A program made the position numbers and the translations under genes. Of a DNA stretch of 64,000 bases, positions 4,735 through 15,610 are shown piece by piece. The stretch covers positions 3,279 to 67,278 of the forward strand of contig CAZUDO010000063.1 of NCBI GenBank assembly GCA_964618895.1. Reading direction: 5' to 3'. The stretch comes from an uncultured Candidatus Binatia bacterium. Lineage in GTDB: Bacteria; Desulfobacterota; Binatia; DP-6. The notes beneath the pieces were generated by a model. It was not told where the DNA came from and did no database searches. It was given only the letters and a program-made list of their open reading frames with translations. The first letter of the stretch is position 1; every line of letters starts with the position of its first letter.

Positions 4735-6035
4735 CGGACCTCCTGTGCGAGCGCCAGACGAGGCTCGGGTGCGAGCGTCGCCAGCACAGTGCAGGCGACG
4801 GGCGCCTGGCGCAGGTCGAAGTACGGATTGATGGCGAGCGCGCGCGCCAGGTGCCGGGCGGCGCGCCGGTCGCGGCCGTGCCCCGCGGCGATCATGCCGG
4901 CGTGAAAGTGCAGCAGCGCGTCCTCGGTGCCGAGGCGAAGCGCCCGATGGGCCGCCCGCATGGCGGCGGCGTGCTGGCCGTTCTTGTAGAGCGCCCAGGC
5001 GAGCGCGTCGTCGGTGTAGATGTCGCCGCGGGTGGTCGCCTCCTGGCGGGCGAGGCGGAGCGCCTCGGGCAGGCGGCGGTCGTGGTCGGCGTAGAACAGC
5101 GCCAGCTGGCGGCCGTAGGTCGAGCCGGCGGCCTCGGCGACCCGGCCCATGTACTCGACCAGCGCGTACTGCGCTTCGGCGTCGGCCATCCGGCCGGCCG
5201 CGGCGTGCACGTCCCCCAGGGCCGCCACCATATCCGGAGCCGGCAGCTGCGCCACGGCGCGCGCGTACAGGGCCGCCGACTCGTCGAGCATGCCCTCGGC
5301 CGCACGCACACGCGCCAGGCCGGCCAGTGCCGGCGGATAGTCGGGGACGAGGTCGCGGGCGGCCGCGTACGCCTGCCCAGCCGGTGCGAGCGCGCCGGCG
5401 GCGAAGTGCTCGTGGCCGAGGTGGACGAGCGTCCAGGCGAGGCTCTCGGGATCGCGCGGGCTGCCGGCCCGGACGGCGGCCGCGAGCAGCTCGAGCGCCC
5501 CCTCGCGGTCGCCGAACAGCGAGCGCAGGAATGCGACCCGCGTGTACGCCGGCAGGCCCGGGCGCAGGTCGAGCAGACGCTGCGCCACGTCGACGGCGCG
5601 GTCGTAATCGCCGAGCTCGACGTAGGCGTCGGTGAGGGTGGCGTAGTTCCACCAATCGCGCGGCTCGCGCGCCCGCGCCGCCGCCGCCACCGCCTCTGCG
5701 CCGCGGAAGTCGTGCTGGCCGAGCAGCACCCACGCCCGCGTGCGCTCAGCCTCGTAGTGCGCCGGATCGAGCGCCAGCGCGTGCTCGACCGCCGCCATCG
5801 CCCGCCCGTAGTAGGCGGGATCCCCCGTTTCGCGCGCCTTCTGCATGAAGGCCGTGGCCAGGGTCACGTAGTGCTCGGGACGGTTCTCGCCCAGACGACG
5901 CTCGGCGGCCTCCAACGCCTGGTCGGCGCGCGACGGCGCCGCCGATGCGGGGGACCCGGGCACGAGGCCGGCGAGCGCCAGCACGAAGGCCAGCGCCCGG
6001 CCGGGTTTCCGTACGAGGTGCACGGACGCGGTCAC
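4731..6035 (-). CDS. Secreted tetratricopeptide repeat protein
   Basis: Signal peptide, 'KARETGDPAYYGRA', multiple TPR units; GTGA overlap with the DUF4331 stop. Confidence 0.85.
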   Translation of the reverse strand: MTASVHLVRKPGRALAFVLALAGLVPGSPASAAPSRADQALEAAERRLGENRPEHYVTLATAFMQKARETGDPAYYGRAMAAVEHALALDPAHYEAERTRAWVLLGQHDFRGAEAVAAAARAREPRDWWNYATLTDAYVELGDYDRAVDVAQRLLDLRPGLPAYTRVAFLRSLFGDREGALELLAAAVRAGSPRDPESLAWTLVHLGHEHFAAGALAPAGQAYAAARDLVPDYPPALAGLARVRAAEGMLDESAALYARAVAQLPAPDMVAALGDVHAAAGRMADAEAQYALVEYMGRVAEAAGSTYGRQLALFYADHDRRLPEALRLARQEATTRGDIYTDDALAWALYKNGQHAAAMRAAHRALRLGTEDALLHFHAGMIAAGHGRDRRAARHLARALAINPYFDLRQAPVACTVLATLAPEPRLALAQEVR

Positions 6036-7549
6036 TCGCCCGGATCTCGATGCCGGCGATCGCGCCCGTCGAACGGGGTGGGAAGGAACGGGAACTCGGC
6101 GGTGATGCCCTGCTCCTGAACACCGACACCGTCGCCGACGTAGTTCTGGAAATACGGCTCGCCGCCGGCGACGCGGACCACCAGGTCGGTCACGTCGTCG
6201 TTCGGCCGCCGGCCATTGGGGAAACCGGCCGGATCGGGGGTGGCGTTGCCGGCCGCATCGTGGGCGAAAGGCCCCAGGCGCTTGACGTTGGCGGCCAGAG
6301 TGGGTGGCGTCAGCAGGTTCAGGCGGAGCAGCTCGGAGTACCGCCCGTCGTTCACATCCTGATCCGCGTACTGGAGGAGCAGATGCACCACGTCGTTCCG
6401 GTCGCCCTTGGGGACCGGGACGCCGGACACCGCCTCGAGCGCGCCGGCCACGTCGAGGCGGCGGTAGAAGCGCAGGAACACGCTCTCGTCCTCCGGCTCG
6501 GTGGCGTTCCACAGGTCCTTGCTCCCGATCGCGATGATGAGCTCGTTCACCAACGGGTTCGCCATGCGCGACACCTGGATGAACTTCTTCTCGCCGCTCA
6601 GGAGCTCGCGCGGCGGCTTCCTCGGGTTGATCTTGGGCGCGCCGCGGCGGACGGTCTCCCGCTGTCGCATGGTGCTGGCGTACATGCCGATGGTGCCGGT
6701 GGCCTCGGTCGGCGCCTTGCCGTCGACGGTGAGGCGGGTCACCGGGATCTCGATCGCGATGGTGTTGATGTTGAAGCCACTGAAGTTGTTGACGCCGAAG
6801 GGGTTCGCGGTGTCGGCTGCGTCCTCGGCGGCGCTCTGCGCGGGCAGCCCGCGCCGGAGGTTCAGCGTATCGAAGACGGCGCCCAGGTCGATGGCGAAGG
6901 TCTCCGCGCGCTGGCCGGCGAAGACCCGGACGCCGGTCGCGTCGTCGGTGTAGATGCCCTGGCTGGCGAGTTGCGGGTAGTTCGGCATGGTGCGCGGGCC
7001 GATGTTGGAGGGGACGGTGAGCATCTTCTTGCCGCCGAACAGCTCGGTGCGGTCGCACTTCCGTCCGTCTTTCCGGCAGTTTCGGACTTCGGTCACGGTG
7101 AAGCGCTGCTTCCGGGCCAGGCCGGGGGCGTCGAGGCGGTCGATCGGCGGCAGCGGCCCGCCGCCGAGCGTGGCCAGGAACTGGTCGGGGTTCTCGGTCT
7201 CGGTCTGGAACGCGAACTCGTAGTTGATGTCGTCGGCCGCGCCGTCGCGGTTGTGGTCGACGTGGAGGACATAGAGGACGTGGTCGTCGAAGGCGAAGTA
7301 GTTGGGGCCGGAGCCCGGCTCCTGTCCGGGCACCACGTTCATGATGAAAGCTACGCGACGCTCGGCGAGCGGGCGCGCCACGTTGGCGGCGTCGTAGCTC
7401 ACGAAGGCGTACACGTCGGTGATGTCCGCGCCCGGGTCGAGGGTCATGAGGGGCGCTTCGCGATGACTGGCCGCGCCTGCCGGGGTCGTCCCGAGCGTGA
7501 GGGCCAGCCCGGCCGCGGCCAGGCCGCGGCAGAGTCTCGTCGTCTGCAT
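6032..7549 (-). CDS. DUF4331 family secreted protein
   Basis: 'ASHREAP', 'ADITDVYAF', 'QVSRMANPLVNE', 'GFPNGRRPNDDVTD'; SD AGGA upstream of ATG 7549. Confidence 0.9.
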   Translation of the reverse strand: MQTTRLCRGLAAAGLALTLGTTPAGAASHREAPLMTLDPGADITDVYAFVSYDAANVARPLAERRVAFIMNVVPGQEPGSGPNYFAFDDHVLYVLHVDHNRDGAADDINYEFAFQTETENPDQFLATLGGGPLPPIDRLDAPGLARKQRFTVTEVRNCRKDGRKCDRTELFGGKKMLTVPSNIGPRTMPNYPQLASQGIYTDDATGVRVFAGQRAETFAIDLGAVFDTLNLRRGLPAQSAAEDAADTANPFGVNNFSGFNINTIAIEIPVTRLTVDGKAPTEATGTIGMYASTMRQRETVRRGAPKINPRKPPRELLSGEKKFIQVSRMANPLVNELIIAIGSKDLWNATEPEDESVFLRFYRRLDVAGALEAVSGVPVPKGDRNDVVHLLLQYADQDVNDGRYSELLRLNLLTPPTLAANVKRLGPFAHDAAGNATPDPAGFPNGRRPNDDVTDLVVRVAGGEPYFQNYVGDGVGVQEQGITAEFPFLPTPFDGRDRRHRDPGE

Positions 7550-7607
7550 GGGTTCTCTTCCTTTCGTCCGTTGCCGGTTGCTGCGGGGCGCCCGCGTCAC
7601 AGGACCC

Positions 7608-7632
7608 TACGGAGGCAGAGGCGCCGGTGGAT
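7608..7632 (-). promoter_or_regulatory. Putative ECF promoter ATCC-N16-CCGTA for the DUF4331 operon
   Basis: Intergenic; reverse complement reads cATCCaccggcgcctctgcctCCGTAg. Confidence 0.65.
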
Positions 7633-7671
7633 GTCGCACCTGAGGGGGGTGCGTGCTACGAGCGCGCCAGA

Positions 7672-7697
7672 GATCCAGACGACGGGTCCCGCCCGTA
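7672..7697 (+). promoter_or_regulatory. Putative ECF promoter GATCC-N16-CCGTA for sigma #2
   Basis: gATCCagacgacgggtcccgcCCGTAc; followed by SD GAGGA (7708-7712) and GTG 7723. Confidence 0.65.
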
Positions 7698-7722
7698 CAT
7701 GCCTCCAGAGGAAGAGCATCCC

Positions 7723-8322
7723 GTGCCGTCGGCACACAGCCTGGCAGCCGTTCCACCCCGTCGGGAGGACCTCGGCGACCTGATCAGCCGCACGGCCCGG
7801 GGAGAGGAGTCCGCCCTGGCAGCCTTGTATGATCTCACCGCCGCACAGGTGAACGGCTTGGCGCTCCGCATCCTGAACGACCGGGGCGCGGCCGAGGAAG
7901 TGACCGGCGACGTGTACCTGCAGGTCTGGCGCCAGGCGGCACACTACGACGCCGACCGCGGCACGCCGCTCGCCTGGCTGCTCACGATCACGCGCAGCCG
8001 CGCCATCGACCGCCTGCGCAGTGGCGCCACGCAGCGCGCGCACACGGCACCGCTGCGGGCGGCCATCGCCTTGCCGTCGGCCGCGCCGGGGCCCGAGGAC
8101 GAGTCGCATCTCAGCCAGCGCCGGCGCTTCGTGCAGCAGGCGCTGGTGCAGCTGCCCGCCGAGCAGCGCCGCGCCATCGAGCTGGCCTACTTCGGCGGGC
8201 AGAGCCATAGTGAGATCGCGGCCACGCTCGGCGAGCCGCTCGGCACCGTGAAGACGCGCGTCCGCCTCGGCATGCGGCGGCTGCGCGACGCGCTCGGCGC
8301 CGCCGGGAAGGACGCCTTCTGA
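7723..8322 (+). CDS. ECF RNA polymerase sigma factor (SigK-like) #2
   Basis: 'AAEEVTGDVYLQVWRQAAHYDADRG..AWLLTITRSRAIDRLR', 'AYFGGQSHSEIA..LGTVKTRVR'. Start chosen from SD and promoter position; the ORF is open from 7627. Confidence 0.92.
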   Translation: MPSAHSLAAVPPRREDLGDLISRTARGEESALAALYDLTAAQVNGLALRILNDRGAAEEVTGDVYLQVWRQAAHYDADRGTPLAWLLTITRSRAIDRLRSGATQRAHTAPLRAAIALPSAAPGPEDESHLSQRRRFVQQALVQLPAEQRRAIELAYFGGQSHSEIAATLGEPLGTVKTRVRLGMRRLRDALGAAGKDAF

Positions 8323-8894
8323 TGCACACCACACTCACCGAACCCCTGCGCGAGCGCGCGGCCCTGTACGCCCTGGACGCCCTGGCGCCGGGCGAGCGTC
8401 ACGAATTCGAGCAGCATCTGGCCGGCGGGTGCGCGGTGTGTGCGTCCGAAGTGGACTCGCTCAGCGCGGTGGCGGGCAATCTCGCGCTGGCGGCCGAGCC
8501 GGTCGCACCCTCGCCCGCCGTGCGCGCCCGGGTGCTCGCCGAGGCCACGCGCCCGCAGCAGGCCACGGCCGATGCCTTCCCGCTCGTGCTGCAGGACGAG
8601 GGCACGTGGACCGAGATCGCCGCCGGCGCGCACCGCAAGATGCTCCTCGGCACGGAGACCCGGGGCGCCCTCAGCTACCTCATCCGCATGCAGCCGCGCG
8701 CGCGCGTGGGCCGGCACGTCCACGATTCGATCGAGCACTGCTACGTCGTCTCCGGCGACGCGTACATCAACGGGCGGCATCTGTTCGCCGGCGACTTCAC
8801 GGCGGCCCTCGTCGGCAGCACGCACGACGAGAGCACCACCGACGGCGGCTGCGTCCTCCTGCTCGTCGAGAGCCGGCCCGGGTTCTCGGCGTAG
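8322..8894 (+). CDS. Zinc-binding anti-sigma factor with a C-terminal ChrR-like cupin domain
   Basis: 'FEQHLAGGCAVC' ZAS-like motif; cupin 'HVHDSIEHCYVVSG' and 'GSTH'; TGATG coupling to sigma #2. Confidence 0.85.
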   Translation: MHTTLTEPLRERAALYALDALAPGERHEFEQHLAGGCAVCASEVDSLSAVAGNLALAAEPVAPSPAVRARVLAEATRPQQATADAFPLVLQDEGTWTEIAAGAHRKMLLGTETRGALSYLIRMQPRARVGRHVHDSIEHCYVVSGDAYINGRHLFAGDFTAALVGSTHDESTTDGGCVLLLVESRPGFSA

Positions 8895-8952: not shown

Positions 8953-9789
8953 GTGATGGACGGCTTCGATCTCGACAGCTACGTGGCGCGCTCCCGGGCA
9001 CTCGATCTGACCGGGATCCACTGGGAGGCGGTGCCGGACCATCCGCTGCCGCCGGAGGCACTGCGGACGCTCCGCTACATGCAGGACATCGAGAGCCACA
9101 CCGTCATCTACCTCCGTACGCTGCTGGCGACGCGCGCGGTGGACGATCCCGAGGTGGCGACGTTCTTCGCCTGCTGGCTGTACGAGGAGACTTCTCACGG
9201 CCGGGCGCTGGCGCGCTTCCTCGCCGCGGCGGGGGCGGCCATTGTCACGCGACCGCGGTCGCAGGTAAGCGTCGGGCAGCGGCTGGAAGCGGCCGCCACC
9301 GCGCTGCTCGCCAAGGCATGGCCCGACTTCGTGGCCGTGCACATGACCTGGGGCGCCATCAACGAGCTCACCACCTTGACCGGATACCGGAGGCTGGCCG
9401 CGGTGGCTGGCCATCCGGTGCTGACCGAGCTGCTGGGCCGCATCATGCGCGACGAGTCCCGGCATTTTCTCTTCTACTTCCACCAGGCCCGCGCCCGGCT
9501 GGCGCGGCCGCGCACCGCCCGGCTGGCGCGGCTGCTCGTCGATCGTTTCTGGGCGCCGGTCGGCAGTGGCGTGCAGCCGGCCGGGGAGACGCGCGCGCTG
9601 GCGCGCTACCTGTTCGACGGCACCGACGGCCGGGCGGCGGCGCGCAAGGTGGATGCGACCATTCGCGAGCTGCCGGGGTTCCAGGACGTACCGCTCCTCG
9701 ACGCCTGGATCGAGCGCGCGGTCCACGGCGGCCGCCCGCCGAGACCGCGGGCTCAGAACCGCCAGCTGAGCCCCGCCCGTACGCGATAG
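8953..9789 (+). CDS. Ferritin-like diiron-carboxylate protein (acyl-ACP desaturase-like)
   Basis: Four-helix ligand pattern: 'IESH', 'YEETSHG' (ExxH), 'INELTT', 'RDESRH' (ExxH). Confidence 0.8.
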   Translation: MMDGFDLDSYVARSRALDLTGIHWEAVPDHPLPPEALRTLRYMQDIESHTVIYLRTLLATRAVDDPEVATFFACWLYEETSHGRALARFLAAAGAAIVTRPRSQVSVGQRLEAAATALLAKAWPDFVAVHMTWGAINELTTLTGYRRLAAVAGHPVLTELLGRIMRDESRHFLFYFHQARARLARPRTARLARLLVDRFWAPVGSGVQPAGETRALARYLFDGTDGRAAARKVDATIRELPGFQDVPLLDAWIERAVHGGRPPRPRAQNRQLSPARTR

Positions 9790-10718
9790 TCCGGCATGAT
9801 CTGCAGCCCCGTGTCGTGCTGGAGCACGGGCAGATCCACCCCCGCCTCGGCGGCCAGGTTCGTTCGCCACGTGAACGCGATGCGCGGGCCGAGGAAGAGC
9901 GCCGTGATCGCCGTGTCGTCGAGCTGGCGGCCCTGCTGCTGGTCGTTGCCCTTGATTTCCCCGGAGAACACCGCCTGCAGACCGAGGGAGTACTCGTGCG
10001 TGGCGAGCGCGAACACGCCCGGCCCGGCGCTCCACATGAGGTCGTTGGCGTAACGGTAGTCGAAGGCGCCGACCGTCCGGATGGCGTACTGGCCGCTCGC
10101 CGTGACGTACAGCCGGTCCCAGCTCCAGAAGAGCTGCGCCCCCACGATGCCGTCGACGGATCCCGATCCGAGCGCCAGGTCGTGGCCGTGGACGCCACTG
10201 CCGCCGGACTCGGCGTGGTCGGCGTCCTCCTCCGCCAGCGGGCTCGGGTTCCCGCTCGGCAGCTCGAGGCCCCCGAGCACCGAGAAGCGGAACACGCTGT
10301 GCGCGGTCACGACGTGATGCACCAGGATCTGGCCGAGGAGCGACAGGTCCCCGAAGCCCGACACGGCGCCCTGGACGACACGGCCGCCCTCGAGCCGCCG
10401 GAAGTGCCGCGTGATCACCGGCAGATTCAGCTGTGCCGTCAGGCGCGGCGTGAAGGTGTAGCCGGCGACGAGCTGCGTGATCGAGCTGTTGATGCGCTCG
10501 CCGGCCGGATTGGGCACCTGGTCCCCGTCCCGTCGCAGGGTGCCGAAGTGCGTGAACTGCTCGGCCACGGCGACCCATGGCCCGGGCTGGCTCAGGCGCG
10601 CGTCGGTGGCGGTGTAGACGGCGCAGACGTCGCACGCAGATGCAGGCTCGCTCGCGGCCACGATGGCCGCCAGCATCAGGGCGATCCGGCGCCCCGACGC
10701 ACGATGTGGTCGTTCCAT
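9753..10718 (-). CDS. Outer-membrane beta-barrel 'transporter' (MetA-pathway/phenol degradation-like family) with N-terminal CxxC
   Basis: SD GGGGAG before ATG 10718; signal peptide then CDVC; 'GFGDLSL' motif; His loop DHAESGGSGVHGHD; C-terminal 'AGLSWRF'. Confidence 0.8.
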   Translation of the reverse strand: MERPHRASGRRIALMLAAIVAASEPASACDVCAVYTATDARLSQPGPWVAVAEQFTHFGTLRRDGDQVPNPAGERINSSITQLVAGYTFTPRLTAQLNLPVITRHFRRLEGGRVVQGAVSGFGDLSLLGQILVHHVVTAHSVFRFSVLGGLELPSGNPSPLAEEDADHAESGGSGVHGHDLALGSGSVDGIVGAQLFWSWDRLYVTASGQYAIRTVGAFDYRYANDLMWSAGPGVFALATHEYSLGLQAVFSGEIKGNDQQQGRQLDDTAITALFLGPRIAFTWRTNLAAEAGVDLPVLQHDTGLQIMPDYRVRAGLSWRF

Positions 10719-10740
10719 GAAGACACGTCTCCCCTGTAGA

Positions 10741-10793
10741 TGGCAGGCGCCGGACGGACGTCGTCCCTCCGGCGCGTTCCGATCGTCGTGCCA
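10741..10793. promoter_or_regulatory. Extended hairpin between the leader ORF and the barrel gene (attenuator candidate)
   Basis: Nested pairs: TGGCA 10741-45/TGCCA 10789-93; GCGCCGGA 10747-54/TCCGGCGC 10768-75; GGAC 10756-59/GTCC 10763-66. Confidence 0.5.
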
Positions 10794-10796
10794 GGA

Positions 10797-11174
10797 TCAG
10801 CCGCGAACGACTCGGGGGGGATCGGTGGGCGGCTCGGCTGCCCCGCGCGTGGGGCGGTGCCCGGCGGCCGGCGCGCCGCACAACTGCGCGAGCGCGGGGG
10901 GCAGCATGCGCTGCTCCTCGAGCGTCACACCCAGCGTGACCGGCGCATCGGTGACCGCGTCGTGACCGCAGGCGCTGCGCAGGCAGACGGTGTCGCTCGG
11001 CGTCACCGGCGCGCGGTGGCAGCCGAGCTTGCGGGCGCCGGGGGCCTCGTCCGCGCGCCGGGCGTGCATCGGGCAGCCGGGCGGGCACTCGACGCAGCCG
11101 CGCGGGAAGCTCGGCGAAATGCTGGCGAGCAACGCCAGCATCATCACCAGCGCACAAAGCCGGCGCGGTCGCAT
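10797..11174 (-). CDS. DUF2946-like small Cys/His-rich protein with a Pro-rich C-terminus (leader ORF)
   Basis: Hydrophobic N-terminus, 'CVECPPGCPMH', 'GCH', 'CLRSACGH', ends 'EPPTDPPRVVRG'; lies upstream of the barrel gene. Confidence 0.6.
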   Translation of the reverse strand: MRPRRLCALVMMLALLASISPSFPRGCVECPPGCPMHARRADEAPGARKLGCHRAPVTPSDTVCLRSACGHDAVTDAPVTLGVTLEEQRMLPPALAQLCGAPAAGHRPTRGAAEPPTDPPRVVRG

Positions 11175-11255
11175 GCCGGCGGGTTGGGTACCATCCGGGC
11201 GCCGGGGGGCGCAAGGCGGGATTCCGGAACTTCTGTGATAGGCACGCCAACCGTC

Positions 11256-12128
11256 ATGACCAGACTTTTGGCGTCCCTCGCCGTCCTGACATGCTTCGCC
11301 TGCCGCGATCCGCAGCCGCCCGCGTCCCCGACCGCGTCGCCCCCGCTCGCCAAGCCCGGTCTGCGCATCTCCATGGCCGCGTTGCACGACGCCGGCGGCG
11401 TCCCGCCCGGCTGGAAGCTGACGCCGCCCCCGGGCGACCCGGACGCGGGCCAGCGCGCCTTCGTCGACCTCGGCTGCGACTCGTGTCACCTGGTGCGCGC
11501 GGACCTCGCCGCCGCACCGCCCGACACCGAGCAGAAAGGCCCGGAGCTGACCACCATGGGTGGCCACCATCCGCCGGAGTATTTTCTGGAGTCGATCCTC
11601 ACCCCGGACGCCGTGCTGATAGAGGGTCCCGGGTACATCGGCGACGACGGGCGCTCCACCATGCCGTCGTATCCCGACCTGACGGTGACGCAGCTCGCCG
11701 ATCTGGTCGCCTACCTGCAGACGCTCACCGGCCCCGGCGGCGGGTCGGCGAAACGGCGCGGACCGATCGGCCTCGCGCAACGCCCTACCCCACCCAAGAC
11801 GAGAGCGGGCGTGTTCTACGTCCAGACCTACGATGCCAAGCCGGGCCGGCTCGCCGACCTGGAGGCCTGGTTCCACGACCCGGGCCGGGCCGCATTCCTC
11901 GCCGTCCCGGGCCTGGTGTCAATCGACACCTACGTCGACAACACGCGTCCGGGGCCGGGCATGATCGCGATGTTCGGCTTCGCCGACGACGCGGCGCTGT
12001 CGCGCTTCATGCAGGACCCCGCCGCCACGGCGCTCAAGGACAAGGTCGACGAGTTCTCCGGGGCGCACGGGCACCAGATCTTCCGCACGCCGCCGGTGTA
12101 CCGGGTGGAGAGCCTGTCGACGCCCTAG
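11256..12128 (+). CDS. Exported monoheme cytochrome c fused to a dimeric alpha+beta barrel (ABM-like) domain
   Basis: Signal/lipobox-like 'LTCFAC'; CDSCH at 11475-11489; distal Met in 'STMPSY'; C-domain 'FYVQTYDAKPGRLADLEAWF...FGFADDAALSRF'. Confidence 0.8.
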   Translation: MTRLLASLAVLTCFACRDPQPPASPTASPPLAKPGLRISMAALHDAGGVPPGWKLTPPPGDPDAGQRAFVDLGCDSCHLVRADLAAAPPDTEQKGPELTTMGGHHPPEYFLESILTPDAVLIEGPGYIGDDGRSTMPSYPDLTVTQLADLVAYLQTLTGPGGGSAKRRGPIGLAQRPTPPKTRAGVFYVQTYDAKPGRLADLEAWFHDPGRAAFLAVPGLVSIDTYVDNTRPGPGMIAMFGFADDAALSRFMQDPAATALKDKVDEFSGAHGHQIFRTPPVYRVESLSTP

Positions 12129-12694
12129 CGGATCCAGGGCCAGCCGCCGCCCACGTCGCAGTCGCTCGGAATGCGCACGCGGCGGGACGACACGCTCTTC
12201 CGGGTCAGCTTCACGCCGTTGAAGAAGTCGTCGTCGCCGACGATGAGCGCCAGCGGCCGGCACACCGGGTCGTTCACGAACATCGCCGACAGGTCGATTC
12301 CCTGCAGCACGAACCGCACGCCCCAGCTGCCGTCGGTGTGCCGCATGAGCCGGAGCATGCGGATGCCCCGCTCCGGCGCGGGCTTGGCGACGTACGAGTA
12401 CACCCGCTGGTTGCGGGTGGTGAGCTTCCCCGCTGCCAGGCGGAAGTTCTCCTCTCCAATGGACAGCAGCAGCGGCTCCTGGTCGGGGAAGATGCCGTTG
12501 GTGTCGGGGTAGAGATCGAACTGCCAGCGGGACGCCTTGAGGATGCCGTTCCCGGTCTCGAGATCGAGCTTGCCGCGGCCCGGGTTGACGGTGAGGATGC
12601 CGTGGAAGATGGGCTCCGTGATCGAAACCTGCGCGCCGACGGTGGACGCCACGAGCACGCACACGGCAAGCACGAGTCCATGCATCGTCGCCAT
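12125..12694 (-). CDS. Secreted hypothetical protein (beta-rich domain)
   Basis: Signal peptide ending VGA; GC3-biased codons; last gene of the 14936-12125 run. Confidence 0.7.
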   Translation of the reverse strand: MATMHGLVLAVCVLVASTVGAQVSITEPIFHGILTVNPGRGKLDLETGNGILKASRWQFDLYPDTNGIFPDQEPLLLSIGEENFRLAAGKLTTRNQRVYSYVAKPAPERGIRMLRLMRHTDGSWGVRFVLQGIDLSAMFVNDPVCRPLALIVGDDDFFNGVKLTRKSVSSRRVRIPSDCDVGGGWPWIR

Positions 12695-12729: not shown

Positions 12730-13737
12730 TCAGCGCACGCTCAGGATGGTGCCGCGACGCCGGGCACGCAGCGTCTGCGTGGTGCGCGTCACCAGCCCGC
12801 CCACGTCCATCGCGAGGTCCAGGGTGGTGCCGTCGGCGGGCAGCGGGTTGATCACCCCGGAGAGCCGGATCCTGAGCCGGTAGACGGCGACCGGCCTCCG
12901 CTTCACGCGCCGGATTTCGACCGCGTTCTGCCCGTTCGTGCTCTGGCCGACGAAGGCGCTCCGCCCGCGCGGCACGAGCCCGTCGAGCGACAGGCCGCGG
13001 CTTCCGAACGTCCCGCGCGCCAGCACGCGCGCCGGGCGTGCGAAGTCGGCGGCGGCGTCCCCGGAGACGAGCTTCGCACGCAGCGTCAGGCCGGAGGCGG
13101 TCACGGTGCCTTTGAGCCTCACGATGCGCGGGGCAAGCGCGAACTGATCCAGGTCGGGGGCCGGCGCCGCCACACACGTGAAGCGCATGAACGCGGGCGC
13201 ATCGGTGTACGGGAACGGCAGGCCCGTCAGGCGAGTCGCGCCCACGATCGCCAGGCTGCCGTCGGGCGCGATCGGCTGGCCCGGGGCGTCGGAGATATCC
13301 TCGCCGACCCCGGCCGGTCCGCTGGTGAGCGTGGTCGGCACGGCATACGCGGTGCCGCCGACGGTGAGGACGAGCGGCACGTCCGTCGCCACCAGCTCGC
13401 CACTCGCCAGCAGGCGTGCCGAGAACACCGCCGGGAACGTGAGCGACGCGCCCGGCCCGAGGCCGGCCAGCACGCGCGGCGGCGGCGCGGCGGCACACTT
13501 CCCGCGCGGGTCGGCGGCGTCGGCAGGACAGAGCTGCGCCGTGCTCGTCCCCGTGTCGTACAGGATGCGCAGCTGGTCCGTCGGCCCCGCGGGCGCCGCG
13601 ACGATGCGGAGACCGATCGACGGCAGGGTGATCTCGAGCGGCTCCGGCGAGCACGCGCTCGGCAACACCGGCGCGCTATGCGCGCGGGCGGTGGACGACA
13701 CGAGGAGCACGGATACGATCAGCAGGGGGGTCTTCAT
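12730..13737 (-). CDS. Secreted hypothetical protein
   Basis: Signal 'MKTPLLIVSVLLVSSTARA' then H; ATGA overlap with the upstream gene. Confidence 0.7.
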   Translation of the reverse strand: MKTPLLIVSVLLVSSTARAHSAPVLPSACSPEPLEITLPSIGLRIVAAPAGPTDQLRILYDTGTSTAQLCPADAADPRGKCAAAPPPRVLAGLGPGASLTFPAVFSARLLASGELVATDVPLVLTVGGTAYAVPTTLTSGPAGVGEDISDAPGQPIAPDGSLAIVGATRLTGLPFPYTDAPAFMRFTCVAAPAPDLDQFALAPRIVRLKGTVTASGLTLRAKLVSGDAAADFARPARVLARGTFGSRGLSLDGLVPRGRSAFVGQSTNGQNAVEIRRVKRRPVAVYRLRIRLSGVINPLPADGTTLDLAMDVGGLVTRTTQTLRARRRGTILSVR

Positions 13738-14936
13738 CGGATGGGACACTCCTGGCCGGCTGGGGCATCGACGACCGCGTCGAAAGCAGCGCCAACGAGC
13801 GCGCAGGCCTCGTCGTCCGGCGTCACGCCCGCCACCAGCGTGGCCGGGACGCAGGCGCCGGTGAACGTCCGCCCCGGATACGACGCATCCGTTCCCGGGC
13901 ACTCGGCAGCTGCCGGCCGGGTCCCGGCGCACGGCTTCGCGGGGACGCCCGCCGTCCCCGGCGTGACGCCGGCCATCTCCTCGCACCCGAGACGCACGGG
14001 GGTGGTGACGCCGTTGTCGGTCCAGCAGGCGTAGCGCAACGCCTCGCCCGGGCGCACCAGCAGGGGCGCGAGCACCCGGTCGAGCGTGCCCAGGTCGGTG
14101 TAGTCGGCCGCGCCGAACAGATGCCGGCGGCCGGGCTCGAAGGGATTCTCGATCCCGTCAGCAGGATCGCGGGCGACGCCACTGCCATCGAGCAGGTCCA
14201 CACCGAGGAAGCGCGCACGCTTGTGCATGTGTCCGGAAAGGAAGAGGACGCAGGCCGCGGCCGGCGGGGTCCACACGTCGCCCGGGGGGGTGCCGGTCGA
14301 CGCTTCGGTGGAGCGCACCGTCCCGGGCGCGACTGCCAGCGCCTGTTCGGCGGTACGAACCGCGAACGGCCGTGCGAGACGGCGCTCTTCCTTCGCCGGG
14401 GCGCGACGCAGGATCACCTTGGTGGAGGCGCGGCGCGTGCGCGTGCCGGTGTTGACCCACTCGCCCGACAACACGAAGCCGAGCCCGTCGGGCAATCCGC
14501 CGGGGGTCGCGGGTACGGGATCGAGCCGGAGGGCCACCCCCGGCGGCAGGACCCGTCGCGTCGGGGAGAATGTGCCGCTGGCAACCACCAGCCGCTGGTC
14601 GCGGTCGACGGGGCCGAGGTCGAGGCAGCCACGGCTGGCGACGATCCGCCCCGCGTCGGCGGCCAGCTCGCCCAGGCGCTCGCCGTGATACTGATAGACC
14701 AGGAAGTGCTGCGGCGCGAAGTCGACGCGCACGCCGCGGTGGCGGATCTCGTACGAAGCCAGGTCGAAGGGCGTCCGCATCGGGACGCGCACCAGCACGC
14801 ACAGCTCGCTGTCACCGCCGGGCGGCAGGGTGAAGGCGGGGAAGCGGAGCTTCACGGCGCGGGGCTCGCGCGCCGCCACCGGCGCCGCCAGCAGGAGCGT
14901 CACGGCGACGAGGGGTATCCAGGCCAGGCGAGGCAT
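13734..14936 (-). CDS. Copper type II ascorbate-dependent monooxygenase-like (PHM-fold) secreted protein
   Basis: 'FPAFTLPPGGDSELC', 'QHFLVY', 'SGHMHKRA' (HxH), 'LRYACWTDN', 'DDEAC'. Confidence 0.7.
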   Translation of the reverse strand: MPRLAWIPLVAVTLLLAAPVAAREPRAVKLRFPAFTLPPGGDSELCVLVRVPMRTPFDLASYEIRHRGVRVDFAPQHFLVYQYHGERLGELAADAGRIVASRGCLDLGPVDRDQRLVVASGTFSPTRRVLPPGVALRLDPVPATPGGLPDGLGFVLSGEWVNTGTRTRRASTKVILRRAPAKEERRLARPFAVRTAEQALAVAPGTVRSTEASTGTPPGDVWTPPAAACVLFLSGHMHKRARFLGVDLLDGSGVARDPADGIENPFEPGRRHLFGAADYTDLGTLDRVLAPLLVRPGEALRYACWTDNGVTTPVRLGCEEMAGVTPGTAGVPAKPCAGTRPAAAECPGTDASYPGRTFTGACVPATLVAGVTPDDEACALVGAAFDAVVDAPAGQECPIR

Positions 14937-14995: not shown

Positions 14996-15610
14996 TCAGT
15001 GCACGGGCGGCACGGTCACCCGCTCGACGCCGCATCGGTCACGCCCCCGCCCGGGACAGGTGGTGGGACGGAGACGCTTGTCCAGGCAGACGTGCACCTC
15101 CTCGAGGAACCGCCCGTCGCAGACGACCCGCACCGCCCCGGCCGGCATGCCCGTGTTCGTGCGCAGGAACTCGCGCCGGACGTCGTGCACACGCACCACA
15201 CGGGCCGTCCGGGGACGTACGAACGTCGTGGGGATCGTGACCGCGTCGTAGGCCGCCCGCACCTGCGCGAAGTACGCCCGCGCCTCGAGCCCGCTGCAGG
15301 TGCCGTGCTTCTCCCATTCGTGCGTGATGAGCCGGTCGCTCGGCATGATGTCCCGCATCCGCGTGCGCACGTCGTCGGGGATGCGCTCGCCCGCCCCGCA
15401 CGAGACCGGCCCGGGCCCGCCGGCCCGGTCCGGCCAGAGGCCGTGGACGACGAACCCGTGGCGCGCCGCGCGCCCGCACTGCGGGCGGTCGCCAGGGTGG
15501 ACGGTGCAGTGCTGCGGGGACCAGGACAGGCTCAGGGTGTAGGAGTCGAACTCGGCCGCCGGCGTGCTGCCGATCCGCACGGCAAGGACGACCAGCGCGG
15601 CGAACACCAT
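14996..15610 (-). CDS. Secreted ribonuclease T2 family protein
   Basis: CAS I 'FVVHGLWPD' and CAS II 'HEWEKHGTCSG'; N-terminal signal. Confidence 0.93.
   Translation of the reverse strand: MVFAALVVLAVRIGSTPAAEFDSYTLSLSWSPQHCTVHPGDRPQCGRAARHGFVVHGLWPDRAGGPGPVSCGAGERIPDDVRTRMRDIMPSDRLITHEWEKHGTCSGLEARAYFAQVRAAYDAVTIPTTFVRPRTARVVRVHDVRREFLRTNTGMPAGAVRVVCDGRFLEEVHVCLDKRLRPTTCPGRGRDRCGVERVTVPPVH

Follow-up and report, generated by a model that had tools for sequence, protein, structure and literature searches.

A family of small exported Cys/His-rich proteins with a C-terminal proline motif, candidate copper-sensing arrest leaders in uncultured Binatia-like bacteria

We analysed a 64,000-nt stretch of DNA (hereafter, the window) from an uncultured Candidatus Binatia bacterium (contig CAZUDO010000063.1), focusing on a 125-amino-acid (aa) open reading frame (ORF) that lies upstream of a gene for an outer-membrane β-barrel. 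This small ORF is a genuine gene and belongs to a family that carries no annotation. Judging from its sequence, it is on balance probably a cis-regulatory arrest leader of the type represented by CutF and CruR, and the metal sensed would probably be copper. A first reading of the same DNA, hereafter the original prediction, had compared the ORF with copper-sensing arrest leaders. This analogy proved well founded, because the ORF and its tail are conserved, the spacing between a cysteine and the Pro-Pro motif is fixed, and the genes found downstream are related to copper.

Translation confirmed the secreted-type Cys/His-rich ORF of 125 aa that the original prediction had described (feature coordinates are collected in Table 1). 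The protein extends from the N-terminus MRPRRLCALVMMLALLAS, a positively charged n-region followed by a hydrophobic core, to the C-terminus AEPPTDPPRVVRG, which directly precedes the stop codon, with the motifs CVECPPGCPMH, GCH and RSACGH, in this order, in between. Its GC3 (G+C content at third codon positions) was 0.90, matching that of confident neighbouring genes. In the signal-peptide-like region, the n-region MRPRR precedes a 14-residue hydrophobic core; AlphaFold placed a helix at residues 2-18, and the cleavage site was ambiguous by eye. The rest of the model, computed with an alignment of 98 sequences, was mostly coil (pTM 0.31), with one short helix in addition to that of the signal peptide. 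The database copy of the protein (P0001, 114 aa) begins at the internal Met12, at position 11141. Because homologs conserve the N-terminus MRxxRRxCAL ahead of this residue, the ATG at 11174 appears likelier to be the true start. No clear Shine-Dalgarno (SD) sequence was seen upstream of the ATG at 11174, and an RNA contig ending at 11183 hints at a very short 5′ leader for the small gene.

A word-indexed search returned 28 close relatives of the small protein, 91-133 aa in length, and a scan with a DNA pattern located 59 loci, two in Binatia genomes and 57 in metagenomes. When the family profile was searched against 1.84 billion representative sequences, 150 clusters matched at E ≤ 1e-3. The few named source organisms of family members were Candidatus Binatia. 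In the search results, members had neither a Pfam domain nor a name beyond "hypothetical protein"; the window protein itself had no Pfam or NCBIfam match at E ≤ 1, and a PDB sequence search with the family profile gave no match. Membership in DUF2946 (PF11162), for which the original prediction had suggested a profile search, was not borne out: the window protein had no match at this threshold, the 98 members scanned individually yielded a single, non-significant match (E = 0.25), and a search with the 98-member profile aimed at DUF2946 proteins retrieved unannotated relatives only, none of them with a Pfam domain. One further family member, at L067:2560-2956, had not been called by the source gene finder, which places a 529-aa gene over it on the opposite strand. 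This member reads CGVCPVDCPMH…PAPPHRPPESLVV up to its stop codon and lies 44 nt ahead of a barrel homolog. As this leader was missed by the gene caller, family leaders are under-counted in protein databases.

Conservation and spacing were determined on an alignment of 98 family members (A4), with residues numbered as in the window protein. Four residues, C30, C34, M36 and C69, were invariant, and C27, P35, H37, C52 and H53 were conserved in at least 90% of the members; the N-terminal consensus was RR.CALVVVLALL. Towards the C-terminus, P115 and P116 were conserved at about 90%, P119 at 97% and P120 at 100%. Overall, the small ORF is a real, conserved gene, in which the proline tail is second only to the Cys/His cluster in conservation.

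Between C69 and P120, every one of the 98 members had 47-52 residues, most often 49-50 (76 members), and exactly five residues followed P120 in 67 out of 98. Other intervals were loose, ranging from 21 to 52 residues between C34 and C69 and from 20 to 53 residues between the N-terminus and C27. Sequence conservation in the linker was low, the commonest residue of a column reaching a frequency of just 0.14-0.3, apart from a weak A-V-L-P patch. This patch (residues 83-86, approximately 10917-10928; frequency 0.5-0.7) is found about 35 residues ahead of Pro-Pro and would sit near the ribosomal tunnel exit at the proposed pause. Moreover, several members (P0189, P0194, P0198, P0201, P0205, P0213, P0218 and P0237) exhibited His/Asp/Gly-rich insertions of 30-100 aa between CPMH and CH; His-rich insertions of this kind leave the spacing between the last Cys and the proline motif unchanged.

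The window ORF closes with EPPTDPPRVVRG and the stop codon. Across the family, the tail takes the form [P/A]-E-P-P-T-x-P-P-[R/K] plus about four residues, with PEPPTxPP[R/K] present in about 50 metagenomic loci and the variants D-P-P-D-T-P-P-P-I and D-P-P-F-H-P-P-R in remoter members. The original prediction had regarded PPTDPPR as a different kind of arrest motif; we revise this view, as the motif closely resembles the validated CutF motif P109EPEGPPPRL118, which depends on elongation factor P (EF-P).

The codons of the motif are also biased. R121 of the window protein is encoded by the rare CGA (10812-10814). In the subfamily closest to the window (44 unique ORFs with Arg or Lys after Pro-Pro), the codon following Pro-Pro was AGA in 22 ORFs, CGA in 3 (window included), a Lys codon (AAG or AAA) in 14 and another Arg codon (CGC or CGG) in 5, so that AGA and CGA account for 25 of the 30 Arg cases. 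The loci with a rare Arg codon at this position were L004, L007, L011-L030, L036, L037, L046, L055, L056 and L059. At the remaining Arg codons of the same ORFs, AGA was found in 0 out of 558 (Fisher p = 2e-13 for AGA and CGA together); the ORFs entering this test are mutually related, yet AGA occurs across several divergent subgroups. In confident genes of the window, AGA and CGA represent 8 and 19 of 334 Arg codons, respectively. CCU makes up 16% of the Pro codons in the motif versus 5% elsewhere. What is constrained here is decoding or the RNA rather than the protein, which fits a programmed pause.

If the small ORF is an arrest leader, its signal peptide would target the nascent protein for export, and the Cys/His/Met cluster (C..CP..CPMH, CH, CGH) would leave the ribosome as translation reaches the C-terminal E-P-P-T-D-P-P-R. 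There, the two diprolyl units, together with a rare Arg codon (CGA in the window, AGA in most close relatives), would slow both bond formation and decoding, resulting in a pause at P119-P120-R121, five codons ahead of the stop. With its 49-50 residues, the linker would bring C69 just beyond the tunnel, some 50 residues away from the peptidyl-transferase centre, with CPMH and CH further out, and metal binding or thiol chemistry on the emerged segment could lengthen or shorten the pause. The paused ribosome would sit on the 5′ arm of a hairpin formed over the stop codon (H1) and could remodel the 78-nt spacer (H1, a second hairpin, H2, and the SD), protect the transcript, or both, which would set the amount of the downstream barrel. 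The data show the gene and its family, the motifs and their fixed spacing, the codon bias, the copper-related gene neighbourhood, the barrel fold and the local stability of the RNA; from these we infer the stalling, its dependence on metal and the link between stalling and barrel expression. As for the direction of control, the effect of copper differs between CruR and CutF and is not readable from sequence. Our guess, the weakest part of the model, is that copper would relieve the pause and turn the barrel off, because CopC/CopD, MbnP and redoxins resemble the copper-acquisition operons headed by CruR.

To describe the genomic context, we compared the window with related loci. The small gene was found ahead of a CxxC barrel in eight loci in addition to the window. 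A divergent member with the tail EPPDTPPPILAA, which shares 27% identity with the window protein in A4, precedes a barrel that is 49% identical to the window barrel and is followed by MbnP. Another locus shows the order small gene, two secreted proteins, barrel, and one barrel is followed by a TlpA/redoxin-like protein. In 35 loci, the small gene is followed by an unrelated protein of 294-308 aa, CopC (E = 2e-23) and CopD (E = 6e-16). One locus type comprises the small gene, a distant barrel relative with the N-terminus ACACGC, a redoxin and a two-component system, and in one locus the small gene lies ahead of a histidine kinase. Co-conservation of the leader and the barrel was only partial: they were associated in eight loci besides the window, but the leader also precedes other genes, and some barrel homologs had no detectable leader. 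As these partners (CopC, MbnP and redoxins) belong to the partner families of DUF2946 operons (PMC9426467), the metal sensed would, by analogy, most likely be copper.

The upstream gene in the window is divergent, and the small gene is first. The possibility that the small gene always heads its operon was considered and rejected, since it is often internal in related loci. Concerning the downstream products, the protein of 294-308 aa (L043:623-1504 and about 35 other loci) has a predicted mature N-terminus HGVVGQRSFIEPF, of the HGVVGQRSF type, and no Pfam match; its N-terminal His could be a copper ligand. Homology of the CxxC barrel to this HGVVGQ-type 294-aa protein was also considered, and no similarity was found. 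The ACACGC-type protein of 331 aa showed a weak similarity to the CxxC barrel that covered the full length (hhalign E = 1.6e-4, probability 50%).

The small ORF and the barrel ATG are separated by 78 nt, compared with 44-240 nt in related loci. In this spacer, we recovered the extended hairpin of the original prediction, which starts 3 nt past the stop codon (10797-10799). It finishes 6 nt ahead of the SD, which therefore lies outside the hairpin. The 5′ arm of H1 consists of the last codons of the small ORF, and H1 and the extended hairpin are mutually exclusive, both of them needing nucleotides 10779-10793. The complete 78-nt spacer folded with z = -2.11. A wider frame of 131 nt was unexceptional (z = -0.89); the significance of the hairpin is therefore local and chosen post hoc. 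The sequence following the hairpin is CUGCCAUCUACAGGGG, not a T-run, and a terminator scan found no terminator-like site on the minus strand. An intrinsic (Rho-independent) terminator was rejected: the GC-rich hairpin is present and the U-tract is absent. The attenuator role proposed in the original prediction found no support either, as there is no U-tract, the SD is outside the hairpin and the hairpin sequence varies among loci with orthologous barrels.

Folding was also assessed in related loci. Segments running from the last ten codons through the spacer into the start codon folded better than shuffled sequences in 16 out of 17 loci, with z ranging from -2.9 to +0.3 (mean of about -1.5; -2.0 in the window); two of these loci were represented by the spacer and start codon alone. 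Spacers unrelated in sequence share a layout, with one hairpin around the stop codon and a second, GC-rich hairpin ahead of the SD. In minimum free energy (MFE) structures, the SD often finds its partners in the Pro codons or the tail; the share of SD partners located in the last ten codons reached 0.55 or more in roughly half of the loci. In the window this share was 0.60, and the SD is matched in the MFE structure by CCCCC from the codons of Pro119 and Pro120. A dedicated anti-SD role for the Pro codons was dropped as a claim and is retained as a possibility, a control with other 30-nt windows of the same ORFs having shown that the pairing is not distinctive.

The window sequence was found in freshwater-sediment metagenomes. 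Two runs labelled RNA-Seq (X3 and X4), from sediment of the same kind, provided RNA contigs at 10725-11035, 10790-10978 and 11022-11183; the RNA coverage, 10725-11183, thus comprises the leader and the spacer and stops 7 nt short of the barrel ATG. No RNA contig was found at 9780-10724, and the barrel ORF was absent from all indexed RNA runs. From 11827 onwards, RNA contigs reached up to 21x, with the 5′ half of the cytochrome c gene uncovered (9300-12300 checked). This pattern fits an excess of leader RNA over barrel RNA of the kind seen in attenuated or destabilised operons.

The predicted signal peptide of the barrel ends with ASA, followed by CDVCAVY, in agreement with the mature N-terminus CDVC of the original prediction, and the A-x-A | CDVC junction is part of an invariant ACDxCAxY in 36 homologs. 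In the same homologs, the invariant residues of the second barrel motif were H177, G178, H179, D180, L181, L183, G184, S185, G186, S187 and D189. At least 1737 barrel homologs were found, some with precomputed PF13557 matches; the window barrel had no Pfam or NCBIfam match. The AlphaFold model (pLDDT 90.1, pTM 0.83) contained a helix at residues 28-43, with CDVC at its start, and the best Foldseek matches were FapF (5o67, E = 1e-14) and a COG4313 channel (4rl8, E = 4e-12), with TM scores of 0.54-0.73 at a sequence identity of 11-16%. Based on AlphaFold and Foldseek, the window barrel is predicted to be a small closed barrel with an N-terminal helix, like the solved members of COG4313/FapF. FapF and the COG4313 channel each have a helix that plugs the barrel. 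The invariant CDxC, the HGH motif and the His/acidic loop suggest a metal substrate, and the protein is probably a copper channel, which may reasonably be viewed as gated by a CxxC plug.

Several observations weigh against an arrest leader. The rare-codon signal is missing in remoter members, which use CGC. In loci of the CopCD type, the small gene follows two secreted-protein genes (X1 and X2) by about 30 nt, and in two loci a ZIP transporter gene ends 4-15 nt ahead of it. Two out of four sampled barrel homologs had no detectable small ORF within 3 kb. The elaborate metal cluster, with five Cys, two or three His and one Met, would equally suit a working periplasmic metal-binding protein, as would the His-rich insertions of about 100 aa present in some members. 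At the RNA level, the window hairpin excludes the SD and has no U-tract; the modelled accessibility of the SD changed little when a ribosome was placed on the motif (0.33 to 0.39); the complementarity between the pause codons and the SD was close to that of other 30-nt windows of the same ORFs (median rank 0.19); and the RNAalifold consensus of 24 spacers was poor (7 pairs with little covariation), with subgroups that align poorly. Since the complementarity, SD-opening and RNAalifold controls weaken the pairing of the SD, the RNA half of the model is plausible, but not established. Moreover, the leader RNA contigs are low-depth assemblies (2-4x), and rare molecules drop out of contigs. Finally, the likeness to CutF and CruR may be convergent, CutF having been compared through its quoted C-terminal decapeptide alone. 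Regarding the ZIP genes (PF02535), located at L009:3116-3886 (E = 2e-38) and L054:779-1681 (E = 9e-37), they constitute a further link to metal transport.

The explanation that best survives besides the arrest leader, although it appears rather unlikely, is that the small protein functions in the periplasm as a copper-binding partner of the barrel, such as a metallochaperone or plug-handling factor, with no role in cis. The proline C-terminus would then be a polyproline-II docking or spacer element, and the hairpin an ordinary intercistronic structure. A partner protein would account for a Cys/His/Met cluster that is invariant and richer than a plain CxxC, for the long His-rich insertions of some members, and for the adjacency to outer-membrane proteins whose mature N-termini (CDxC, ACACGC and HGVVGQ) resemble metal-binding sites; the frequently internal position of the small gene (X1-X2-small-barrel-CopC-CopD) and the negative or weak outcome of the SD-masking tests point in the same direction. 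However, it is hard to explain on this basis why an unconserved, disordered linker should have its length fixed to within 1-2 residues, which is the signature of DUF2946 leaders (PMC9426467), and the rare AGA or CGA after Pro-Pro indicates a constraint at the nucleotide level. In addition, no fold was predicted for the protein (pTM 0.31), at least four unrelated kinds of genes, a histidine kinase included, are found after the small gene, and the design of the motif is nearly identical to that of the validated arrest motif of CutF.

An explanation that places control mainly in the RNA is improbable. The hairpin would in this case be a U-tract-less ("I-shaped") terminator, a pause site for Rho or RNA polymerase, or a stabiliser of the 3′ end, and the leader transcript would accumulate whatever the peptide senses. 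Such a role is compatible with the strong local hairpin (-24.5 kcal/mol, z = -4.78), with RNA contigs that cover the leader and the spacer and none on the barrel, and with the presence of GC-rich stem-loops in every related spacer. Nevertheless, both a U-tract and a terminator-like site are absent, one RNA contig passes through the hairpin to 10725, 22 nt past its base, and the peptide motifs, their fixed spacing and the codon bias are left unexplained. Furthermore, the sequence of the hairpin is not conserved among loci with orthologous barrels. The original prediction had linked the hairpin to the PPxxPPR tail as two features to be sought upstream of orthologous barrels; it is the tail that is kept in the family.

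It is highly improbable that the small protein is the precursor of a secreted Cys-rich peptide (a metallophore or RiPP-like product), as small size, export, Cys content, copper context and the nearby MbnP, a protein associated with methanobactin operons, in one locus are countered by the absence of adjacent maturation enzymes (MbnB/C-like, radical SAM or cyclodehydratase) in the loci examined, by the approximately 100 aa remaining after the signal peptide, by conserved residues that span 45 residues with no short core, and by the unexplained fixed spacing to the C-terminal proline motif.

The arrest-leader reading can be extended, tentatively and with more doubt than confidence, to a family of metal-sensing arrest leaders of independent origin (convergent or very deeply diverged). 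Such a family would combine a double-diprolyl and rare-Arg pause with a 49-50-residue ruler through which the copper state of the envelope acts on the pause, and would control copper-specific outer-membrane channels with a CxxC plug that have so far not been recognised. The module would be portable, standing ahead of at least four kinds of copper genes in Binatia-like and other uncultured bacteria, and would also operate within operons.

Table 1. Features of the small ORF, its spacer, the barrel gene and neighbouring regions (positions in the window).
Feature	Position	Strand	Basis and remarks
Small ORF, 125 aa	10797..11174	-	Translation; exported, Cys/His/Met-rich, C-terminal proline motif; candidate sensor and arrest leader
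Signal-peptide-like N-terminus, residues 1 to ~24	11103..11174	-	From sequence: MRPRR + LCALVMMLALLASI + SPSFP
Putative metal-binding cluster, residues 27-71	10962..11096	-	C27-x-x-C30-P-P-G-C34-P-M36-H37 ... C52-H53 ... R-S-A-C69-G-H71
Linker, residues 72-113	10836..10961	-	Sequence varies, length fixed
Proline motif E114-P-P-T-D-P-P-R121	10812..10835	-	Proposed ribosome pause site; PP at 115-116 and 119-120
Four-codon tail VVRG and stop TGA	10797..10811	-	Stop codon at 10797-10799
Hairpin H1, over the stop codon	10779..10815	-	MFE and centroid folds, 114-nt context, z = -2.0
Extended hairpin (H2 and UGGCA:UGCCA base)	10741..10793	-	-30.1 kcal/mol, z = -3.15, 2/200 shuffles as good
Hairpin H2 core, 29 nt, GCGCCGGAGGGACGACGUCCGUCCGGCGC	10747..10775	-	-24.5 kcal/mol, z = -4.78, 0/200 shuffles as good
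Shine-Dalgarno GGGGAG of barrel gene	10729..10734	-	From sequence; 10 nt ahead of ATG 10718
Outer-membrane β-barrel, 321 aa, ends WRF	9753..10718	-	Predicted N-terminal plug helix with CDVC
Codons of C29-D-V-C32, predicted mature N-terminus of barrel	10623..10634	-	A28, C29, D30, C32, A33 and Y35 invariant in 36 homologs
HGHDLxLGSGSxD motif of barrel	10152..10190	-	After a variable acidic/His-rich loop
Divergent 81-nt region between small ORF and cytochrome c gene	11175..11255	.	ORF layout; presumed promoter region
X1 13734-14936 (400 aa), X2 12730-13722 (~330 aa)	12730..14936	-	Secreted proteins of unknown function

Among the neighbouring genes, a cytochrome c (PF00034, E = 2.6e-8) is encoded on the plus strand at 11256-12128, divergently from the small gene, and its product has a C-terminal domain of about 130 aa fused to it, without a Pfam match. 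No sigma-70-like consensus was found in the region between them (11175-11255). The same arrangement with a divergent cytochrome c was observed at L047:2975-3732, where the small ORF has no proline tail.

Further upstream, X1 and X2 have no Pfam match, and X1 no PDB sequence match. By tblastn, X1 was present in 23 and X2 in 28 related loci (24 and 29 with the window), among them L013, L016, L038 and L040, in the order X1, X2, a gap of about 30 nt, small gene, outer-membrane protein, CopC and CopD. In the window, a 191-aa ORF and the opposite-strand cytochrome c gene lie between these two genes and the small gene. The H-M-H of X1 (GHMHKRARF), together with an HFLVY segment, may suggest a copper site. 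Directly upstream of X1, a ribonuclease T2 family protein (PF00445, E = 3.7e-16) is encoded on the minus strand at 14996-15610.

On the other side, a di-iron protein resembling ferritin or acyl-ACP desaturase (PF03405, E = 2.7e-5) is encoded on the plus strand at 8953-9789; its gene converges on that of the barrel, overlapping the 3′ end of the latter by 37 nt. A DUF4331 protein (6032-7600, minus strand, E = 8e-94) has as its neighbours an ECF sigma factor at 7627-8322 and, at 8322-8894, an anti-sigma factor of the ChrR cupin type; the region 6032-8894 may be an envelope or redox stress module located near the copper genes.

To our knowledge, CruR (2022) and CutF (2023-2025) are the only post-transcriptional copper sensors of the arrest-leader type, and we know of such leaders as tied to DUF2946 so far and mostly found in Pseudomonadota and Bacteroidota. 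If the present reading is true, the same design of sensor, linker and pause exists in a family that current profiles do not see and that is widespread in uncultured soil and sediment bacteria. What would be new here is an unannotated family of sensor leaders with its own metal cluster, a site made of a double diprolyl and a rare codon, a new class of regulated barrel, and Binatia-like hosts. Sensor cluster, pause motif (PPxxPPR, PPDTPPPI and PPFHPPR) and pause codon all vary naturally within the family, and these variants could help to show how metal binding across the membrane reaches the peptidyl-transferase centre. Likewise, the large uncharacterised family of small barrels (at least 1737), with its invariant CDxC plug helix and HGH motif, represents a set of candidate copper channels.

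Among known systems, CutF of Rhodobacter capsulatus (cutFOG) has a Sec signal, a CxxxC motif and the C-terminal P109EPEGPPPRL118 (PMC9973294; bioRxiv 10.1101/2025.02.05.636593). In CutF, stalling needs both PPP and EF-P, and changing PPP to PAP abolishes regulation (bioRxiv 10.1101/2025.02.05.636593); a stem-loop shields the SD of cutO (PMC9973294; bioRxiv 10.1101/2025.02.05.636593). Both proteins are small (<150 aa) and, in the window by prediction, Sec-exported, with a Cys motif and a proline motif a few residues from the stop (PEPEGPPPRL in CutF versus AEPPTDPPRVVRG here), and in both cases a short, structured spacer (<100 nt) precedes a copper-related gene. In terms of the rule-based filters for CutF-like proteins (Ozturk et al., PMC9973294), the window protein is shorter than 150 aa, carries PP within its last 15 residues and is spaced 78 nt from the next gene, a signal-peptide-like N-terminus being recognised from sequence. 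The two nevertheless differ in the metal cluster (CxxCPxxCPMH/CH/CGH here versus CxxxC), the proline motif (PP-x-x-PP-R versus PPP), the regulated gene (an outer-membrane barrel versus a multicopper oxidase), the stem-loop, which encloses the SD in CutF but not here, and the hosts (uncultured Binatia-like bacteria versus Pseudomonadota).

CruR (Bp2923) of Bordetella pertussis, a DUF2946 protein (PF11162), combines a CXXC, a fixed spacer and RAPP (PMC9426467). In DUF2946 proteins, the Cys motif lies 45 residues (within 1-2) ahead of RAPP, itself located three residues short of the C-terminus, and an insertion of five residues disrupts copper control (Roy et al., PMC9426467). Copper relieves the stall of CruR, after which Rho terminates transcription ahead of the gene for an outer-membrane transporter (PMC9426467). 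For CruR and CutF alike, the downstream gene is "on" when the ribosome is stalled. CruR was reported to be poorly structured, and the operon partners of DUF2946 include CopC, MbnPH-like and AhpC/TSA proteins (PMC9426467). The window family shares with CruR a small protein, here predicted to be exported and poorly structured, in which a Cys is held at a fixed distance from a proline arrest motif (45 residues within 1-2 in CruR, 49-50 from the proposed motif here), with the motif 3-5 residues from the C-terminus, an outer-membrane transporter gene downstream, and CopC, MbnP-like and AhpC/TSA-type operon partners. In contrast to DUF2946, the element at the ruler position is here a single Cys in C-G-H, the CxxC (C27/C30) being about 90 residues upstream, PF11162 does not match, and the tail is EPPTDPPR plus four residues, without RAPP. 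The motif here is PPxxPPR, and stalling by CruR is independent of EF-P; the spacer measures 78 nt versus 162 nt, the downstream product belongs with the small FapF/COG4313-like barrels and not with the TonB-dependent transporters, and the small gene is not consistently first in its operon.

SecM and the RAPP peptides ApcA, ApdA and ApdP are also exported upstream ORFs, with a C-terminal arrest tuned across the membrane and control of the next cistron through mRNA structure (PMC10951233, PMC10987492). They monitor the secretion machinery, not metal, use RAGP or RAPP motifs and are not Cys/His-rich (PMC10951233, PMC10987492). As for the regulated protein, the window barrel resembles FapF and the COG4313 channel Pput2725 (PDB 5o65/5o67 and 4rl8; PF13557) in being a small barrel with a helix, here predicted, at its N-terminus. 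It differs from them in that this helix opens with an invariant CDxC and in the presence of the HGHDLxLGSGSxD motif and of a His/acidic loop.

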